A model generated the notes under the pieces. It was given only the letters and a program-made list of their open reading frames with translations. It searched no databases and was not told the origin of the DNA. This document shows positions 781-61,405 of a stretch of DNA of 64,000 nucleotides, piece by piece. The position numbers and the translations under genes were made by a program. Origin of the DNA: Phage NC-G; the sequence record MK310184. One strand, 5' to 3'. Positions within the stretch are counted from its first letter, which is position 1. Every line of letters begins with the position of its first letter.

Positions 781-817
781 TTGCACTAAACCAAAAAAGG
801 AACCCGAAGGTTCCTTA
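781..817 (-). repeat. terminator/UP-element module, near-identical copy at 55841-55880
   Basis: ttttgcactaaacc-aaaaaagg-aacccgaaggttcctt shared with 55841-55880 apart from 1-2 indels. Confidence 0.6.
791..817 (-). terminator. intrinsic terminator after gene 52 operon
   Basis: 8-bp stem AAGGAACC/GGUUCCUU with UUCG tetraloop (797-816) followed by U6 on minus-strand transcript. Confidence 0.7.
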
Positions 818-4345: not shown

Positions 4346-4371
4346 AATCATCTCCATTAGTTGATAGGTCT

Positions 4372-4400
4372 ATAGTATCATGTCTAATGGAGATGTAAAC
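4372..4400 (-). promoter_or_regulatory. early promoter with RBS-complementary spacer
   Basis: -35 GTTTAC 4395-4400, 17-bp spacer, -10 TACTAT 4372-4377; inverted repeat 4351-4360/4384-4393. Confidence 0.6.
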
Positions 4401-9700: not shown

Positions 9701-9724
9701 CCCGAAAAGGGCCTTGCGGCCCTT
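9701..9724 (-). terminator. intrinsic terminator (GNRA-loop hairpin)
   Basis: AAGGGCC-GCAA-GGCCCUU (9707-9724) followed by UUUUC on minus transcript, after the 53-aa ORF. Confidence 0.5.
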
Positions 9725-21400: not shown

Positions 21401-21432
21401 GAAACGAAAAAAGGAATCCCGAAGGATTCCTT
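21401..21432 (-). terminator. intrinsic terminator after soc
   Basis: 9-bp stem AAGGAAUCC/GGAUUCCUU with UUCG loop (21411-21432) followed by UUUUUCGUUU. Confidence 0.65.
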
Positions 21433-24000: not shown

Positions 24001-24187
24001 TTACGAAAATAGCTTTGTCACCGTTGGCGTCAGTGACTTCGTACGTATCTTCGTGGTAAAGTGGGATAATCCAGGTCACACCATCATCAGCAATAACATG
24101 GATAGCTTCTTGGTCTTTTGATACGATTTCATATTCTTCGAATAATTCGAATACAGAAATCTTAGAGCCCGTACACATTGCAGTCAT
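23996..24187 (-). CDS. hypothetical protein (63 aa)
   Basis: track ORF, co-oriented and tightly packed. Confidence 0.45.
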   Translation of the reverse strand: MTAMCTGSKISVFELFEEYEIVSKDQEAIHVIADDGVTWIIPLYHEDTYEVTDANGDKAIFVI

Positions 24188-24188
24188 A

Positions 24189-24629
24189 TTAACCTCGGTT
24201 CATAAAGGCATTAAAAATCTGGTCGTCAATTGAATAAACTGGAGCTTCCAGAATTTTCAACAGGCTATTTTTGATATACTTGCTAGGGATATCCATATTA
24301 ACGCAGTCGTTCAATTCGTTGTCAGGGAGGATATCTTTAAATTCGAATCCTTCAAATTCAACCTTGTCGGGAAAACCATCAGCGAAAAAATAAACCAATT
24401 GGTGCATTGTATTGCGCGAAAATAATTTAGACTTAACTGCAATAAGTTCTTGCCATTGGTTTAATTCTTTGTTAAGAAGTTTATGGGCAAATACAATCCT
24501 ATCATCGCTATCAACAATAAAATAACCCAGGTATTTATGGTCGTCGCTCCAAAACATCCTGTATGCTTGTGCATTTGGATTTTTACAACGAAGTTTTTTG
24601 ATAACCAAATTTCTGTTAATCTTATTCAC
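24189..24629 (-). CDS. hypothetical protein (146 aa)
   Basis: track ORF, co-oriented and tightly packed. Confidence 0.55.
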   Translation of the reverse strand: MNKINRNLVIKKLRCKNPNAQAYRMFWSDDHKYLGYFIVDSDDRIVFAHKLLNKELNQWQELIAVKSKLFSRNTMHQLVYFFADGFPDKVEFEGFEFKDILPDNELNDCVNMDIPSKYIKNSLLKILEAPVYSIDDQIFNAFMNRG

Positions 24630-25997: not shown

Positions 25998-26022
25998 ACA
26001 AAAAAAGGAGCCGAAGCTCCTT
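25998..26022 (-). terminator. intrinsic terminator after gene 41
   Basis: AAGGAGC-UUCG-GCUCCUU (26005-26022) followed by U7; overlaps gene 41 stop. Confidence 0.65.
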
Positions 26023-37028: not shown

Positions 37029-37085
37029 TTCATTTCCTTTATAGACGAGTGATTGTCTTTTGTTTGTTGATGAATCATTATACTC

Positions 37086-37106
37086 CAAAAAGGGACCGAA
37101 GTCCCT
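37086..37106 (-). terminator. terminator-like UUCG hairpin between regA and gene 43
   Basis: AGGGAC-UUCG-GUCCCU (37091-37106) followed by UUUUUGG; -10-like TATAAT directly downstream. Confidence 0.5.
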
Positions 37107-37116
37107 CTGCTTAAAC

Positions 37117-37479
37117 TTAATTACCAATCGTATACTTAGACAGCAGTTCCCAGTCATTTTTCTGTTTAAAGGAAATGACGCGGAAGTTGTTGGTGATTTC
37201 GAACAATTCGGAATCGTCTACAATATCAATAAGTCCCCAATCCTTAAGAAGCTGGGCGATAGAATCGCGACGTTGGTAGTCTTCACCATCGATATCTACC
37301 TGGCGTCCGTCCATACGCAACATTTCTTTAAAGTGGACAATATAATATCGTCCTTGCTTTTGCAAAATGTGACAGGACTGATATAGTTTCTTTTCTTTAT
37401 TATTAGCGATACCCATACGAGTCAGGGTCTCTTTCACTTTTAGGAAGTCTTCGGGTTGCTTCAGAGTAATTTCAATCAT
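37117..37479 (-). CDS. regA: RegA translational repressor
   Basis: 120 aa; near-identical blocks to recalled T4 RegA (MIEITLK.PEDFLKVKETLTRMGIAN...). Confidence 0.9.
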   Translation of the reverse strand: MIEITLKQPEDFLKVKETLTRMGIANNKEKKLYQSCHILQKQGRYYIVHFKEMLRMDGRQVDIDGEDYQRRDSIAQLLKDWGLIDIVDDSELFEITNNFRVISFKQKNDWELLSKYTIGN

Positions 37480-40461: not shown

Positions 40462-42140
40462 TCCATCACCGTGAATCGTCCAACTTTCTTCATTTGAAGA
40501 TGTTGGCCATAAGCTTGTGGGTCATGGTCTCGGTGAGAGATAATGAACACGTTCGTATCCTCAAGGCTATTCAAGATGGTTGCAATGCTCTTAACGCCTT
40601 CAGCGTCGGTTGCACTGTCAAATACCTCATCAAGAATCAGTGTGGATATATTAACACCTGATACCCTAGAAGCAATATCACGCCATGTAAAAAGTAGTGC
40701 GATATCAATACGTGCTTTCTCACCCTGTGAAAATGAAGCATAACTAAAGTCTTCACGTCCACGTGATTTAATCGTCTCATTGAATTCTTCGTCTAGAGTA
40801 AAGACGTAGTCCGCCTCCATAATCTTCAAATAAGAATTAATCTGCTTATTAAAGATAGGAATGTATTTCTTAATAATAGAACCTTTAATACCAGTATCCT
40901 TCAACATTTCTGTCAGAATTCCACGATGATATTTTTCCATTACCAAGGACGATTTGGTAGAGACGATTTTATCAAGCTCTGCTTGAAGCGTAGCAATCTC
41001 TTCGGCATTACTTACGAACTCAGCTGCCGCTTGGTCAATTAATATCTTAACCTTTTTGGCTTTCTCTACAGCAGTAATAGCTTGCTGCTTATGAGTAGCT
41101 ATCTGAGATTTAATAGCCAACGCTTTATTGCGTTGTTCGGTTACTTGGTCTTTAATGAGCTTGAGTTCTTGGTATTGCTCATTAATCTTATCCAAAGATT
41201 TTTGAAGCTCAAAGTTTTTATCCTTAATTTTGGTAAGGATGTTTCCATGCTCTTCTAATCCTTGCATACATGTAGGGCAGTGACCACCTGTTTCGTATAA
41301 TTTAACCACCTTTGTAAAGGTCGCCATATCATTTTTGATTGCAAATCCTTTATTACTCAGGTCACTCATGGAGTCGCTAGGGTCATCATCTACGATAACA
41401 TTGAGTAATTCATCAGTCAGAGATTCTATGCTCGCCTTCGCAGTCCTGGCTTCTTTAACGAGCTCATCATACATTAATTGTAGACGGGCAGCGTTTTCGC
41501 CAGATAATTTACGTTGACGTTCTTCGTTGTCATTATAAATTTTAATTTGTTGGGTAATAGAATCTTGCTTAACATCTATTACTTGGATTTGGCTATTAGT
41601 CTCACGAATCAAAGATTTGTTTAACTTATCCATATCCGCTAATACAGAAACCTCTAAGAGGTCTTCGACGAGTTTTCTTCTTGCAGGAGTGGATAGGCCC
41701 ATAAAAGGGGTATATCCAGCTGTGCCGAGTACGACAATTTGTTTGAAGCTTGCATAGGACATTCCGATAAGCTGTTCAAATTCCGCTTGGAAGTCTTTAC
41801 TGCTGGCAGATTCATCAAGACGTTCACCGTCACAAGAGATTTCAAAAACGTTGGGTTTTTGCCCGCGTTTGATATAGTATTCTTTGCCATCATATTCCAT
41901 CCACAGTTCGACCAAAAGGTCTTTCTTGTTACTTGAGTTAATCAACTGCCCTTTCTTAACATCACGAAAAGGCTTACCAAACAGAGCAAATGTTACAGCT
42001 TCAAGGAATGTTGATTTCCCTGCACCATTTTTACCAGTGACTAAGGTCTTTTGGACCTTATCAAGTTGGATTGTAATGGGCTGCTGCCCTACCGACATAA
42101 TATTTTTATACGTTACTTTTTTTAACTTAAAAGTCTTCAT
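40458..42140 (-). CDS. 46: recombination nuclease subunit gp46 (SbcC/Rad50-like)
   Basis: track ORF trimmed to ATG 42140; 560 aa; Walker A GKNGAGKST, long coiled coil, Cys hook CPTC. Confidence 0.9.
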   Translation of the reverse strand: MKTFKLKKVTYKNIMSVGQQPITIQLDKVQKTLVTGKNGAGKSTFLEAVTFALFGKPFRDVKKGQLINSSNKKDLLVELWMEYDGKEYYIKRGQKPNVFEISCDGERLDESASSKDFQAEFEQLIGMSYASFKQIVVLGTAGYTPFMGLSTPARRKLVEDLLEVSVLADMDKLNKSLIRETNSQIQVIDVKQDSITQQIKIYNDNEERQRKLSGENAARLQLMYDELVKEARTAKASIESLTDELLNVIVDDDPSDSMSDLSNKGFAIKNDMATFTKVVKLYETGGHCPTCMQGLEEHGNILTKIKDKNFELQKSLDKINEQYQELKLIKDQVTEQRNKALAIKSQIATHKQQAITAVEKAKKVKILIDQAAAEFVSNAEEIATLQAELDKIVSTKSSLVMEKYHRGILTEMLKDTGIKGSIIKKYIPIFNKQINSYLKIMEADYVFTLDEEFNETIKSRGREDFSYASFSQGEKARIDIALLFTWRDIASRVSGVNISTLILDEVFDSATDAEGVKSIATILNSLEDTNVFIISHRDHDPQAYGQHLQMKKVGRFTVME

Positions 42141-44013: not shown

Positions 44014-44040
44014 AGATTTATTTTATCATCCGAATATAAA

Positions 44041-44064
44041 GCAAAAAAGGAGCCTAAGCTCCTT
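44041..44064 (-). terminator. intrinsic terminator
   Basis: AAGGAGC-UUAG-GCUCCUU (44047-44064) followed by UUUUUGCUUU. Confidence 0.55.
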
Positions 44065-45915: not shown

Positions 45916-46178
45916 TGTAGGAATCTGGCTCCTTCTAGTGCATCGTCAAGATTATCAAACTCATCAACGTAATCAATACCACCAACCTCGTCTTTAGCGT
46001 ATAGCCAGTACTGTTTAAATTCATATTCGATAATAAAGTGATCGCCTTCGATTTGAAGTACATTGGCGTCATTAATTTGGACCGTATATCCAACTAGGCG
46101 GACATCATTAAGGATTTCTTCTTTCATGGTAATCATTTCCAGGTTTTTATCGTAATTAGAGAGTTTTATTTTAATCAT
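45912..46178 (-). CDS. hypothetical protein (88 aa)
   Basis: track ORF. Confidence 0.5.
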   Translation of the reverse strand: MIKIKLSNYDKNLEMITMKEEILNDVRLVGYTVQINDANVLQIEGDHFIIEYEFKQYWLYAKDEVGGIDYVDEFDNLDDALEGARFLQ

Positions 46179-46504
46179 TTCGCAGCCTTAACAATTTTCA
46201 GGTCAACGAATTTTTTCTTACGTTGGTTTTTCATACGACGAATAGTTTTATCTGTGATTTCACCCGGGTGCCAAGCTTTAGATTCAACACCAAAGGCAGC
46301 AACGTCAAACTCATCAAGGATATATTGAACCAGGATTTCACGAATACCATTCTTACCAATTTTCTGGTCTTTAGAACGCATGATTGGTAACAGTTCGGCA
46401 ACCCATTGGTCGAGAATTTCAGGAGTCACAAAACCTGTATTCATCAGTTCGTTTACTTTATCGAAAGCGAAAGAGTTCAGCACGTTTTTGATTGCTTGTG
46501 ACAT
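46175..46504 (-). CDS. hypothetical protein (109 aa)
   Basis: track ORF; first gene after early promoter. Confidence 0.55.
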   Translation of the reverse strand: MSQAIKNVLNSFAFDKVNELMNTGFVTPEILDQWVAELLPIMRSKDQKIGKNGIREILVQYILDEFDVAAFGVESKAWHPGEITDKTIRRMKNQRKKKFVDLKIVKAAK

Positions 46505-49086: not shown

Positions 49087-49297
49087 AATAAACCCTTACC
49101 ATTATTAGATAAGGGTATTTATTAAACATTATAAAATGAGCGATGCAACCGTTTAAATTGACGAATCATCTTTTTGGTAGGACGGGTGTATAATCCTACA
49201 CAGGTGGCCATAAACCGGTCGGTAGGACTTCCTTTGATAAGAAGTTTCCAGACCTTGTCACCATTTAACTTTTCAGTATAGACTAATTTAGTTTTCA

Positions 49298-49513
49298 TCA
49301 GAACGCCTTATCAGCAAAGCGAAGTTGAGCTTCAAGCCAATGAATATAATCGGCTGCAGCTTTAATCAAATCGGATTCTAGGTCAGGTAACTTACGGGAA
49401 TCCGATAACTCGTAAAGCGAATGTTCAATCAGACGGCCTTTATGTCGACCAATTTCAATTTTGGTACTCATATCCAAACTCCATATCGATGAAATCATTG
49501 TTTGAAGGTTCAT
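49298..49513 (-). CDS. hypothetical protein (71 aa)
   Basis: track ORF; overlaps neighbour, true start uncertain. Confidence 0.4.
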   Translation of the reverse strand: MNLQTMISSIWSLDMSTKIEIGRHKGRLIEHSLYELSDSRKLPDLESDLIKAAADYIHWLEAQLRFADKAF

Positions 49514-54383: not shown

Positions 54384-54409
54384 GATAACCTCCAGTAGTT
54401 GATAGGTCT

Positions 54410-54438
54410 ATAGTATCATTTCTACTGGAGATGTAAAC
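54410..54438 (-). promoter_or_regulatory. early promoter with RBS-complementary spacer
   Basis: -35 GTTTAC 54433-54438, 17-bp spacer, -10 TACTAT 54410-54415; inverted repeat ctccagta/tactggag. Confidence 0.6.
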
Positions 54439-54791: not shown

Positions 54792-55772
54792 TTATTTCAG
54801 AAGTGTAACTTCAGCGATTTCGTTCCAGTCATTTTTATCGGTGGCAATGAAGTCCGCCAGATAAAGAGCTGTACGTAATGATACGTTACGAAGACGAGAT
54901 ACATTAGCCTTCATCCATGCCAGTGCTTGATAAGTCTCAGCATCAGTCAGACCTCGATTTTGCATCATATCAGTGGACAGGATAACGTCTTCAACACGAA
55001 CCATAATCTCTTCGTTAGAGTGAACTCCGAGGTCTAAGTAAACTGAACGAGATACTAAAGCCTGGAGGTGTGGAGCAAGTTTAGTTCCACGCTCTAATTC
55101 ACGGTCAATATCAACGTTGGTGATGAACACGATGGTGCCTTCATACTCGAATTCTTTATCGATATTTTTATCATCGAGATAAGAACTTGAAGTGCTCCAG
55201 CATACCTTACGTTTTTCACCAGTATCCAATGCCGCTTTCAGAAGGTTCAGGATATCCATATCAGAGAATACATCAACATCATCAATAAGAAGAACACTAT
55301 TAGGGCCGCGGTTATTCCAAAGCTGCTCGTAAAGACCGATTCCACTAATCTTTCCGTTGATTGATTTATATTCGATAGTTTCATTTTCGTGGGCATTTTG
55401 TAATGCTTTATCCAAAGAGTACGTTTTACCAATACCTGCTGCACCAGAGATGATAAGGGAACGAATTTTACCATCGATGATTCCATTAGTCATCATATTC
55501 ATTACTTTAAAACGTTTGTTGATGCGGTGTTTCATTTCATCCTGGGATTCGGTTACGACTGCAGGGGTTTCAACACCTTCAGTCTCGATATCAGATTTGA
55601 ACACCCATACACCACGCTCTACGCCATCAATCTGAACAAAGACCTTACCATCGCCGAGGTGGGCTTCAGATTCATGAATTTTATTAGGGAACCAGGTTTT
55701 ACCTGAACTCATGAACGTACCAGAGATTTCGTTACCGCGGTAGATACCTTTGTTGATTTTGATAGTTAACAT
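54792..55772 (-). CDS. AAA+ ATPase
   Basis: track ORF trimmed from GTG to ATG 55772 (GAAGGA RBS); Walker A ISGAAGIGKT, Walker B VLLIDDVD. Confidence 0.65.
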   Translation of the reverse strand: MLTIKINKGIYRGNEISGTFMSSGKTWFPNKIHESEAHLGDGKVFVQIDGVERGVWVFKSDIETEGVETPAVVTESQDEMKHRINKRFKVMNMMTNGIIDGKIRSLIISGAAGIGKTYSLDKALQNAHENETIEYKSINGKISGIGLYEQLWNNRGPNSVLLIDDVDVFSDMDILNLLKAALDTGEKRKVCWSTSSSYLDDKNIDKEFEYEGTIVFITNVDIDRELERGTKLAPHLQALVSRSVYLDLGVHSNEEIMVRVEDVILSTDMMQNRGLTDAETYQALAWMKANVSRLRNVSLRTALYLADFIATDKNDWNEIAEVTLLK

Positions 55773-55807
55773 TTTATTATCCTTCACTCATTTGTTTTGA
55801 TAGGTCT

Positions 55808-55836
55808 ATCTTAACACGATTAATCAGGTTGTAAAC
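55808..55836 (-). promoter_or_regulatory. early promoter
   Basis: -35 GTTTAC 55831-55836, 17-bp spacer, -10 TAAGAT 55808-55813, conserved agacctatcaa box. Confidence 0.55.
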
Positions 55837-55840
55837 AATT

Positions 55841-55880
55841 TTTTGCACTAAACCCAAAAAAAGGAACCCGAAGGTTCCTT
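55841..55880 (-). repeat. terminator/UP-element module, near-identical copy at 781-817
   Basis: ttttgcactaaaccc-aaaaaaagg-aacccgaaggttcctt shared with 781-817. Confidence 0.6.
55851..55880 (-). terminator. intrinsic terminator
   Basis: AAGGAACC-UUCG-GGUUCCUU (55861-55880) followed by U7 on minus transcript. Confidence 0.7.
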
Positions 55881-55884
55881 AATA

Positions 55885-56895
55885 TTATCGATAATAGGCG
55901 TTGTGGTTTTCTAGATAAACCTCTTCAACAAATTTGTCCCAGAAGCTCATGTCTACCTTATCAGGCATACCGTTCTTGGCCGCCCAGACTGCATTGGTTT
56001 CGACTTCATCGACGATTGCTTCAAGTTCAGCTTGTACATCTTTAAAAGCGTGTAGGCCTTGTTTGATTTCAAGGATAAATGGAGCTGTACGTAAAGGATA
56101 TTGGAGATCGCCTGTTTGATAGATTTCTTTCAACTGGTATCCAGCACGATAAGCATGGCTCAGGGCTTTCCAGTCAATACCTTCATTGGCTTCGGCCTTA
56201 CGAGCACGTTCGCCGTATTCAGCATCAAGTTTATTCAGAGATTGCTTAAGCTCGATTAATGACAAAGTGGTCTGGTATTTACGTCCTAAGACAGTATAGA
56301 ACGTTTGTGGACCTGTTTTCTCGTGATTATGGAATACCCATTCACAGAACTCGTTTTCAGGGAGTCTGTGTTTGATATCTTCTACCTTAGTGCGACGTTG
56401 TTTAGTTGAACCATCTTCTTGATAATCGACCCATTGTTCAGGAATCTGGTTGACTATTGCCAGTACACCACGCAGAGCAGCCAGACGAGAACCTTTAACA
56501 CCATACTTAGAAGCTTGCTTACGGACGTACCCTAAATATGCTTTCATGTTAGTTGTATAGAACCGAGAACGGTTGTCTTGAATAAATTTCCACACATCTG
56601 GTAAATCAGATTTGACTACCAGGTCAGCCGGAGTATGAATCATGTCCAGGGCAACGGTTTCGCCTTCGGCAGCCAGTTTAAAGAAATATTTCAGGCTATA
56701 AAGCTCATGGTCAACATCATCTTTTGTGTTTTTGGTAGCCGTGTTATTCGTATTCAAGTTGGTATGGTTCATCGCGGTTCCGAGCAGGATATCACGCGGA
56801 TGTGGAACAAAGATTTCTTTAAAATCAACATCAGATTCTGGAGTACTTGTTCCATAAAGGTGGCTACCGAAGTAGCCTTTCATAACTGTTCTCAT
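55885..56895 (-). CDS. Pol-beta-superfamily nucleotidyltransferase
   Basis: 336 aa; N-terminal GS-x9-DVD motif (YFGSHLYGTSTPESDVDFKEIF). Confidence 0.55.
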   Translation of the reverse strand: MRTVMKGYFGSHLYGTSTPESDVDFKEIFVPHPRDILLGTAMNHTNLNTNNTATKNTKDDVDHELYSLKYFFKLAAEGETVALDMIHTPADLVVKSDLPDVWKFIQDNRSRFYTTNMKAYLGYVRKQASKYGVKGSRLAALRGVLAIVNQIPEQWVDYQEDGSTKQRRTKVEDIKHRLPENEFCEWVFHNHEKTGPQTFYTVLGRKYQTTLSLIELKQSLNKLDAEYGERARKAEANEGIDWKALSHAYRAGYQLKEIYQTGDLQYPLRTAPFILEIKQGLHAFKDVQAELEAIVDEVETNAVWAAKNGMPDKVDMSFWDKFVEEVYLENHNAYYR

Positions 56896-58379: not shown

Positions 58380-58429
58380 GCCCAGGGTTCTAAGTAATAA
58401 ATCATCTCATACTCCTATGTCAACAGCCA

Positions 58430-58882: not shown

Positions 58883-58911
58883 TAGTATCATGTTCCTAGA
58901 GGATGTAAACA
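58883..58911 (-). promoter_or_regulatory. early promoter
   Basis: -35 GTTTAC 58906-58911, 17-bp spacer, -10 TACTAT 58883-58888, conserved agacctatcaac box. Confidence 0.6.
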
Positions 58912-58920
58912 CTAAAATGA

Positions 58921-58948
58921 AAAAAAAAGGTCCCACCGAAGTGAGACC
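58921..58948 (-). terminator. intrinsic terminator
   Basis: 8-bp stem GGUCUCAC/GUGGGACC with UUCG loop (58929-58948) followed by U8-9. Confidence 0.7.
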
Positions 58949-60763: not shown

Positions 60764-60966
60764 TTAGGTTCACCATATCGCACAAATTTAGGGTGTTCAC
60801 AATCACCAGAATGGAGACCTTCACCTTCATGGTTAGGACATCCTTTATTAGAACAGTACCACCAGTAATCAAATCCACATTCCATTTCATCGTTGCATAA
60901 AACTGCGATTACTGGCCATTCGCATTTTTCACATTTGGCCGTTTTAAGAATTCGGGCTTGGCTCAT
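60760..60966 (-). CDS. zinc-ribbon protein (68 aa)
   Basis: track ORF; CEKCEW...CSNKGC...C motif. Confidence 0.45.
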   Translation of the reverse strand: MSQARILKTAKCEKCEWPVIAVLCNDEMECGFDYWWYCSNKGCPNHEGEGLHSGDCEHPKFVRYGEPK

Positions 60967-61405
60967 AATCCACCACCACTAAATTAATATCAGGAGTAAA
61001 CAAATTAATCAATTGATAAACCTTGTCCCAATCACCACCAGCAATACCACAACCAATGCGAGGAATATAAATTCTCGGTTTAAACAAAAGACCCTTTGCA
61101 GTACGGTTTAATTCTATCATACAGTTTACTAAAGCACCGTAATCAAGATTAGGACCTGGTTCATATTGGGTGTAAAGATTGTAGCAAATTTGCCCGTTAT
61201 TACCCGTGGCTTGAGTAAATGTTCCGAGTTTTGCTGCATCACCTAAATAAGTGGTTTTATCAATAGCAAGAATAGGTGGATACGCTTTAGCCAATTGACC
61301 CGCTACACCTGAACCCATAGTATGAAAACAGTTGCACCCGTGTGCAACATTATTACCTTGAAGAAACAGGGCGACGATATCGCCCTTAATATAATCAATA
61401 ATCAT
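60944..61405 (-). CDS. macro-domain protein (ADP-ribose binding / hydrolase)
   Basis: 153 aa; macro-domain glycine-rich motifs (NVAHGCNC...MGSGVAGQL and IPRIGCGIAGGDW). Confidence 0.65.
   Translation of the reverse strand: MIIDYIKGDIVALFLQGNNVAHGCNCFHTMGSGVAGQLAKAYPPILAIDKTTYLGDAAKLGTFTQATGNNGQICYNLYTQYEPGPNLDYGALVNCMIELNRTAKGLLFKPRIYIPRIGCGIAGGDWDKVYQLINLFTPDINLVVVDYEPSPNS

Follow-up and report, generated by a model that had tools for sequence, protein, structure and literature searches.

Promoter-early stem-loops (PeSLs) are composite elements made up of a stop codon, an AT-rich region, an early promoter, a stem-loop terminator, and a Shine-Dalgarno/start region. They are repeated in hyperplastic regions, where they are contiguous with ORFans that differ between close relatives, and a model has been put forward in which excision and insertion take place via recombination between flanking copies; mini-circles have been detected experimentally (PMC2839356; PMC4122927). 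JS98 enters the 2010 PeSL paper only through PeSL-like sequences near gene 43 (PMC2839356), and the motA and nrdC.11/nrdC.10 loci of the JS98 group lie outside the 2014 analysis (PMC4122927). The Dhakavirus modules described here, one upstream of motA (site A) and one upstream of nrdC.10 (site B), would therefore represent a new instance rather than a new kind.

The PeSLs of RB49 and phi1 (Arbiol et al., 2010; PMC2839356) are the same composite, repeated around the genome and flanking variable ORFans, and in RB49, as here, an indel between two flanking copies leaves one chimeric copy. RB49 promoters have near-perfect TTGACA/TATAAT boxes, in contrast to the GTTTAC −35 found here, and the polyG/polyC stems of RB49 often lie between or over the −35 and −10, whereas the stem here (AAGGAACC, with a UUCG loop) is wholly upstream. 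Mini-circles and reporter activity have been shown for RB49 (PMC2839356); the Dhakavirus modules are described here from their sequence. In the PeSLs of T4/PST and nt-1/KVP40 (Comeau et al., 2014; PMC4122927), the stem-loop is located just upstream of TTTACW...TAYWAT, as here, and these PeSLs adjoin indels or exchanges, for example T4 ndd.4/.5 vs. PST ORF268/269. The T4/PST stems are variable (AGNA-loop-TCNT), whereas the Dhakavirus pair is exact over 25 + 16 nt. The degraded “half” PeSLs of those phages (PMC4122927) have a counterpart in the degraded remnant carried at site A by the relative IME341.

The motA region of T4 (163,600–163,730) has the same parts as site A, namely gene 52, a small membrane ORF, a hairpin with a T-run, an AT-rich stretch, a GTTTAC promoter, and motA. 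Its hairpin (GGGAGAGCC-GA-GGCTCTCCC) and UP sequence differ from those of Dhakavirus, and the region holds no duplicate of the Dhakavirus 16-mer described below. In T4-group phages, the module upstream of motA (T4, L196, 2104–2215, minus strand) is nearly identical to one in the nrdC.11-nrdC.10 gap of other T4-like contigs (L091, L093, and L094), with the common sequence CC-TTTTTTATTTTAAAAATTTTTTCACAAAACGGTTTAC...TACTATACAACTATCAACT. A second genus therefore also has a module of its own that is common to these two loci.

Genomic Setting and Anatomy of the Two Sites

The window, meaning the whole 64-kb stretch of DNA that was analysed, belongs to a JS98-like T4-type coliphage of the genus Dhakavirus. 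Identity to JS98 is 97% over its first 6 kb, and in the region of site B no record exceeds 92–96% identity. The gene run comprises motA, gene 52, ndd, denB, rIIB, rIIA, replication genes, and the nrdC region, all encoded on the minus strand. Local genes, U-tracts, and promoters all read leftwards in window coordinates, making minus the functional strand. Site A is found between the conserved genes 52 and motA, bounded by a 34-aa ORF 3' of gene 52 (815–919) and by motA (78–710), while site B falls in the plastic nrdC-tk region, between homologues of nrdC.11 (55885–56895) and nrdC.10. The 34-aa ORF (minus strand) is hydrophobic and overlaps the stop of gene 52 (ATGA). It matches phrog_16377, is kept across Dhakaviruses, is without annotation in JS98, and is the positional counterpart of the T4 small membrane gene motA.1. 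Elsewhere in this part of the window, a 94-nt direct repeat (2587–2680 and 2851–2944; 79% identity, 264 nt apart) contains a start region and a GCGTCCGAAGACGC hairpin, and has the appearance of small membrane-protein ORFs duplicated in tandem ahead of gene 52.1.

The order of parts is the same at both sites: upstream stop, hairpin, U-tract, A-rich UP-like segment, −35, TGn, −10, 5'UTR, and downstream gene. Site A begins with the TAA stop codon of the 34-aa ORF (815–817), the last two bases of which are the first two of the hairpin stem. The putative terminator hairpin (797–816; AAGGAACC-UUCG-GGUUCCUU) has an 8-bp stem and a C(UUCG)G tetraloop, with an RNA fold centroid of −11.4 kcal/mol, and is followed by a U-tract of UUUU (U6 when the stem end is counted) and GG (791–796). 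Next come the segment TTTAGTGCAAAAAA (777–790), whose A6 run (about −45 to −40) lies where a proximal UP subsite would be expected, and a predicted early promoter (745–773) consisting of GTTTAC (−35), the spacer TTCTGCTTTAAACA, TGa, and TACTAT (−10). The leader AGACCTATCAAATAAATGGTTATCGGAGATTAAA together with the motA ATG occupies 708–744 (ATG at 708–710).

Site B repeats this arrangement. The stop codon of the nrdC.11 homologue (55885–55887) lies 4 nt before the hairpin (55861–55880; −11.4 kcal/mol), whose 20-mer is identical to that of site A, and the U-tract is UUUUU (U7 with the stem end), followed by GGG (55853–55860). The segment TTTAGTGCAAAAAA (55839–55852) has its UP-like A6 at about −44 to −39, and the predicted promoter (55808–55836) reads GTTTAC (−35), spacer, TGt, and TAAGAT (−10). 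The leader AGACCTATCAAAACAAATGAGTGAAGGATAATAAA and the ATG of the nrdC.10 homologue (55770–55772) complete the site (55770–55807). Both leaders consist of AGACCTATCAAA..., a Shine-Dalgarno sequence, and ATG, and at both sites the early promoter starts about 20 nt past the hairpin, with 14 nt from GTTTAC to TGn and 17 nt from GTTTAC to TACTAT or TAAGAT.

Extent of the Repeat

The earlier note had claimed a near-identical module at 781–817 and 55841–55880, and this repeat is confirmed. There are exactly two occurrences of the 20-mer AAGGAACCCGAAGGTTCCTT in the 64-kb window, at 797–816 (site A) and 55861–55880 (site B), with no third match in the window when up to three mismatches are permitted, and the adjoining 16-mer (minus strand GGTTTAGTGCAAAAAA, plus strand TTTTTTGCACTAAACC) is exact at 777–792 and 55839–55854. 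The minus-strand order common to both sites is TAAGGAACCTTCGGGTTCCTTTTTT, GG(G)TTTAGTGCAAAAAA, and (GG/T)TGTTTAC. Aligned from the base 5' of the hairpin to the −35 hexamer, approximately 47 of 52 columns are identical, the differences being one extra T and one extra G, each within a homopolymer, and a minor change just ahead of the −35. None of 100 shuffled controls gave any match to AAGGAACCCGAAGGTTCCTT at three or fewer mismatches (0 expected). Because of these exact matches, the shuffles, and the alignment, we regard the repeat as far beyond chance. A coincidental repeat of a short AT-rich sequence, favored by nothing more than the general AT-richness of the genome, is exceedingly improbable given the shuffled controls and a likeness that keeps its order and orientation over about 50 nt.

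The two copies are direct repeats 55 kb apart. Their likeness is not confined to the hairpin and UP element originally flagged; it runs beyond those coordinates through the −35, the TGn/−10, and the predicted start of the transcript (AGACCTATCAAA), as far as about 733 at site A and 55798 at site B, for a total of roughly 50 nt plus a −10/leader motif. They represent two of the six terminator-plus-early-promoter units in the window, and are the closest pair (93% vs. 70% for the next).

Predicted Terminator Hairpins

A consensus scan classified the hairpin as terminator-like on the minus strand, and its sequence has the features of an intrinsic terminator: four of eight stem pairs are G-C, the U-tract is U6 (site A) or U7 (site B), and it is positioned at a gene end. 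The hairpin is only moderately stable, with a z-score of about −2 relative to shuffled sequences, 5–9 of 200 of which fold as well. C(UUCG)G tetraloops are present in four of the six promoter-linked hairpins of the window. Such hairpins are reportedly unusually stable and common in T4 intercistronic regions, as Tuerk and colleagues are said to have described in PNAS in 1988. The C-G-closed UUCG is common to those hairpins and the present ones; the subject of that work was reportedly RNA stability and structure, and not promoter linkage or recombination, whereas here the hairpin is linked to a promoter. An Rfam scan of the whole window gave no family at threshold.

The four further units with a terminator hairpin and an early promoter are all on the minus strand, at approximately 58929–58948, 26005–26022, 21411–21432, and 9709–9722. 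Three have UUCG loops (GGTCTCAC-TTCG-GTGGGACC, AAGGAGC-TTCG-GCTCCTT, and AAGGAATCC-TTCG-GGATTCCTT) and one has GCAA, and the unit at 58909 also borders an indel relative to IME08.

The hairpin with its U-tract (a 24-mer) was found in 61 IMG/VR stretches, most of them unrelated metagenomic contigs with unrelated flanks. This exact terminator therefore arises repeatedly, so that identity of the hairpin can come about by convergence, and the hairpin alone is no marker of the module. The result bears on an explanation by purely functional convergence, according to which both loci need the same optimal terminator and promoter upstream region, and neighboring indels reflect ordinary hyperplastic turnover for which the module is not the substrate. 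Recurrence of the identical hairpin and U-tract in so many mostly unrelated viral contigs is as this explanation predicts; other parts of the module bear on it differently, as described in the following sections.

Hairpin sequences also vary between relatives at a given position. At site B the stem is of the GGAACC type or the GGCC type (AAAAGGCC-TTCG-GGCCTTTT) depending on the Dhakavirus, VR5 has only a loop change at site A, and at a third locus the window has AAGGAATCC/GGATTCCTT where relatives have AAGGAACC/GGTTCCTT, a paired change. Judging by these substitutions, it is structure, not sequence, that is kept at a given locus.

UP-Like Segment

The UP element consensus of Estrem et al. (1998/1999) comprises a proximal subsite, AAAAAARNR, at −46 to −38, and a distal A/T-rich subsite at −57 to −47. 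The proximal subsite is matched here by the A6 run plus GG or TT, and the distal part (TTGGTTTAGTG) shows no match to the distal subsite of the consensus. The designation “UP element” given in the earlier note is therefore only partly supported, holding for the A6 run and failing for the distal half. A reading of TTTAGTGC as a MotA box was rejected by eye, as it does not fit (a/t)(a/t)(a/t)TGCTTtA (consensus from PMC2988021).

An IMG/VR scan with the 15-mer GGTTTAGTGCAAAAA returned 100 hits, 91 of which are chance matches in coding sequence. The remaining nine have a terminator-promoter context and all come from the Dhakavirus 52/motA or nrdC.11/nrdC.10 loci; the full hairpin-plus-UP form, which in its exact version occurs at these two loci only, therefore characterizes the genus at two loci. 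The promoter family as a whole has A-rich −40s regions, as convergence would have it, but the 16-mer GGTTTAGTGCAAAAAA is non-consensus, is exact at both sites, and among the 100 IMG/VR hits is found in a terminator-promoter context only there, which argues against convergence.

The constancy of this segment could also mean that GGTTTAGTGCAAAAAA is a specific operator, or an element responsive to an RNA polymerase modifier, through which motA and nrdC.10 are regulated together; candidates would include an Alt-stimulation determinant or the site of a phage or host factor. Conservation would then reflect regulation, not mobility. Consistent with this, GGTTTAGTGCAAAAAA hardly varies within the genus at either locus, relatives with a GGCC-type hairpin at site B still have TTTAGTGCAAAAAA there, and Alt acts selectively on T4 early promoters, stimulating some of them with no recognised sequence determinant (PMC2988021). 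Against it, JS98 has the variant TTTAGTG-AAAAAAG at site A, and IME08 has the more diverged TTTAGTGAAAATAAAGG. Moreover, a generic proximal UP subsite suffices to account for the A6 run, and the search for such an element returned neither protein or motif evidence nor an Rfam family match. We consider an operator of this kind, in any of its variants, very unlikely.

Predicted Early Promoter Family

The window contains 21 predicted intergenic early promoters on the minus strand with an A-rich region at −44 to −39, six of them with an upstream hairpin and T-run, and the promoter part of sites A and B recurs in at least 10 further members of this set. T4 early promoters have been described as UP/−35/TGn/−10 promoters (PMC2988021), a description that this A-rich family fits. 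The start following the −10, TAGACCTATCAAC/A, is almost invariant in at least 10 early promoters (e.g., at 733–744, 4362–4373, 54400–54411, and 55798–55807), and T4 has the related ACAACTATCAAC before motA.

Many early promoters that are not associated with a terminator share another property, in that the spacer between −35 and −10 and the Shine-Dalgarno region of the gene just downstream are reverse complements. Examples on the minus strand are located at about 4399, 14804, 54437, 63549, 47697, 13494, and 3640, with complementary runs of 8–12 nt (e.g., CATCTCCATTAG ... CTAATGGAGATG at 4399). The complementarity is absent in all six terminator-hairpin promoters, where the longest run is 5–6. 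As predicted from pairing, a read-through transcript would hide the Shine-Dalgarno sequence in a hairpin spanning the −10, whereas a locally started transcript would not. These promoters may correspond to the subclass of RB49 PeSLs with a stem-loop between or over the boxes.

Gene Gain and Loss at Sites A and B

To compare the two loci among relatives, their spans were surveyed in approximately 35–40 Dhakavirus genomes. Both module sites are points at which small ORFs are gained and lost, the outcome sought by the comparison with related phages that the earlier note had proposed. At site A, the states observed between the module and motA are no cassette, A, B, C, and A+B, the three ORFan cassettes being unrelated to one another; approximately 17 genomes have no insert, and approximately 21 have an additional 299, 325, ~345, 468, or 622 bp. 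Site B has at least five states, with spans of 0, +190, +308, +520–540, and +772 bp. The +190 state corresponds to a 62-aa ORF between nrdC.11 and the hairpin, the +308 state to a 76-aa ORF after the promoter, and the +520–540 states to combinations of inserts. Cassette ORFs fall into PHROG families of unknown function only, and one has no family.

Individual relatives illustrate the range of arrangements at site A: IME341 has one different ORFan, IME281 a third, and IME08 a tandem pair of ORFans, with the same promoter and leader ahead of each, while QL01 and phage 005 have no insert. More distant T4-like phages have a nrdC.11/nrdC.10 gap of about 380–1660 bp, filled with different cassettes.

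The comparison with JS98 is the most detailed. JS98 is some 285–310 bases longer at each site, and when the window is chained to it by BLAST, the alignments on either side cover the same window bases for 41 nt at site A and 54 nt at site B, the longest such overlap repeats among all junctions between window and JS98. At site A of JS98, orf253 (71 aa) is enclosed by two identical 41-bp copies of GTTTACTTCTGCTTTAAACATGATACTATAGACCTATCAAA (GTTTAC...CTATCAAA), the second of which is preceded by a second hairpin, and at site B an unannotated 76-aa ORF is flanked by two promoter copies of 39 bp. In the window, each site has one promoter copy where JS98 has two, which, as far as the alignments go, is the topology expected from recombination between flanking cassettes. 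That the JS98 inserts are bounded by perfect promoter repeats of 39–41 bp is difficult to reconcile with convergence.

Parts of the module also appear at the other locus in other genomes. The JS98 site B promoter bears the site A spacer CTGCTTTAAACATG, and the site B leader of the window (CTATCAAAACAAATGAGTGAA) is similar to the one that cassette A has at site A in JS98. Promoter spacers and leaders thus appear to be shuffled between loci A and B across genomes, a second observation from relatives that counts against convergence.

The suggestion that the module mediates exchange is borne out to the extent that cassettes are swapped at both sites, and needs correction as to the part involved, since mappable junctions lie in the promoter/leader half and not in the hairpin/UP 40-mer that had been flagged. 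Flanking identity in six relatives showed no step at site A. At site B in the same six, identity is 85–91% in nrdC.11 and 93–95% in nrdC.10, a change that may fall inside nrdC.11 and not necessarily at the module.

Indels Across the Window

Relative to JS98 and IME08, we counted 29 distinct indel junctions over approximately 123 gene junctions. Three of the 29 are at the six terminator-promoter modules (three of six modules hit), compared to about 1.4 expected (binomial p ~ 0.15), and enrichment of indels at modules across the window is thus not significant in this small sample of two relatives. The majority of indels involve entire small ORFs at coupled ATGA or TAATG junctions, with 5–6 nt of microhomology.

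Both the predominance of coupled stop/start junctions that have no module and the lack of significant window-wide enrichment are in keeping with convergence and ordinary turnover. Weighed with the promoter repeats bounding the JS98 inserts, the shuffled spacers and leaders, and the shared non-consensus 16-mer, convergence nevertheless seems an unlikely explanation of the two sites, and we favor the reading of both as PeSL-type cassettes.

Small-ORF gain or loss at junctions without a promoter module is the commonest type of indel in the window. At several translationally coupled junctions (24185–24190, 37117–37118, 42136–42140, 46171–46179, 49294–49298, 58421–58426, and 60963–60968), the window lacks segments of approximately 190–295 bp relative to JS98 or IME08, and the repeats there are only 2–9 nt long. 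Two further indel or replacement junctions relative to JS98 (37050–37116 and 44017–44064) abut terminator hairpins with no recognisable early promoter: a GGGAC-TTCG-GTCCC hairpin lies just 3' of the junction at 37117, and an AAGGAGC-TTAG-GCTCCTT hairpin (44038–44064) lies just 5' of a replacement of 607 vs. 157 bp.

Discussion

Set against the published description of PeSLs, both sites have an intergenic span from stop codon to Shine-Dalgarno/start (815–817 to 708–710 at site A; 55885–55887 to 55770–55772 at site B), and by sequence match both have a sigma-70-like early promoter with an AT-rich upstream region. The stable stem-loop beside the promoter, a candidate terminator or attenuator, is represented by the predicted fold and U6–7, and genomic repetition with conservation over up to ~100 bp by the 21 promoters and six hairpin units. 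ORFs present or absent in relatives, with junctions inside the repeat, are represented by the at least five states per site. Leaving aside location (site B lies in a plastic region, site A between conserved genes), all defining features of PeSLs that can be read from sequence are thus present at sites A and B.

On this basis we think it likely that each copy is a PeSL-type regulatory cassette with two roles, terminator-restart and recombination patch. The hairpin would stop read-through from the upstream unit and the promoter would restart transcription, and motA and nrdC.10 would thereby be driven from their own immediate-early promoters. At the same time, a cassette of ~100 bp that is common to loci and phages could serve as a homology patch for the efficient T4 recombination machinery, and small ORFan cassettes bearing their own copy of the promoter and leader would be inserted or deleted at these points. 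The portable terminator-promoter cassette proposed in the earlier note is in this sense supported by the relatives, although as a concept it had already been published under the name of PeSL (PMC2839356; PMC4122927).

A productive intragenomic crossover between sites A and B was considered and rejected, as it would delete genes 39 to nrdC.10, including replication genes. The likeness of the two copies would therefore stem from non-crossover exchange, cassette traffic, or selection; it is probably kept by exchanges of the kind just described (conversion without crossover) together with selection for function.

Integron gene cassettes offer an analogy, as they too are small, promoter-adjacent cassettes of unknown function that are gained and lost at a fixed site, and the tandem pair of IME08 is comparable. 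The differences are that here there is no integrase and no attC/attI, that each cassette has its own promoter, and that the presumed mechanism is homologous recombination over 40–70 bp. In a more speculative version, the modules next to motA and nrdC.10 would be dedicated, integron-like landing pads, where cassettes carrying a 40–70 bp promoter/leader “address” are preferentially captured, stacked, and swapped between the two loci and between co-infecting phages, and GGTTTAGTGCAAAAAA would have a role beyond that of a UP element, such as being recognised by a helper protein that stimulates the exchange. We rate this version as improbable, and keep to the PeSL-type cassette as the working interpretation.

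No concept is changed by these results. They provide a clean example, from a genus outside both PeSL papers, of terminator-promoter cassettes located at points of ORFan gain and loss. The approximately 35–40 Dhakaviruses form a natural allelic series, with at least five states at each of two loci and including a tandem array, and the PeSL recombination model is therefore easy to test in this group. The ORFans directly before motA are candidates for host-adaptation or anti-defence functions.
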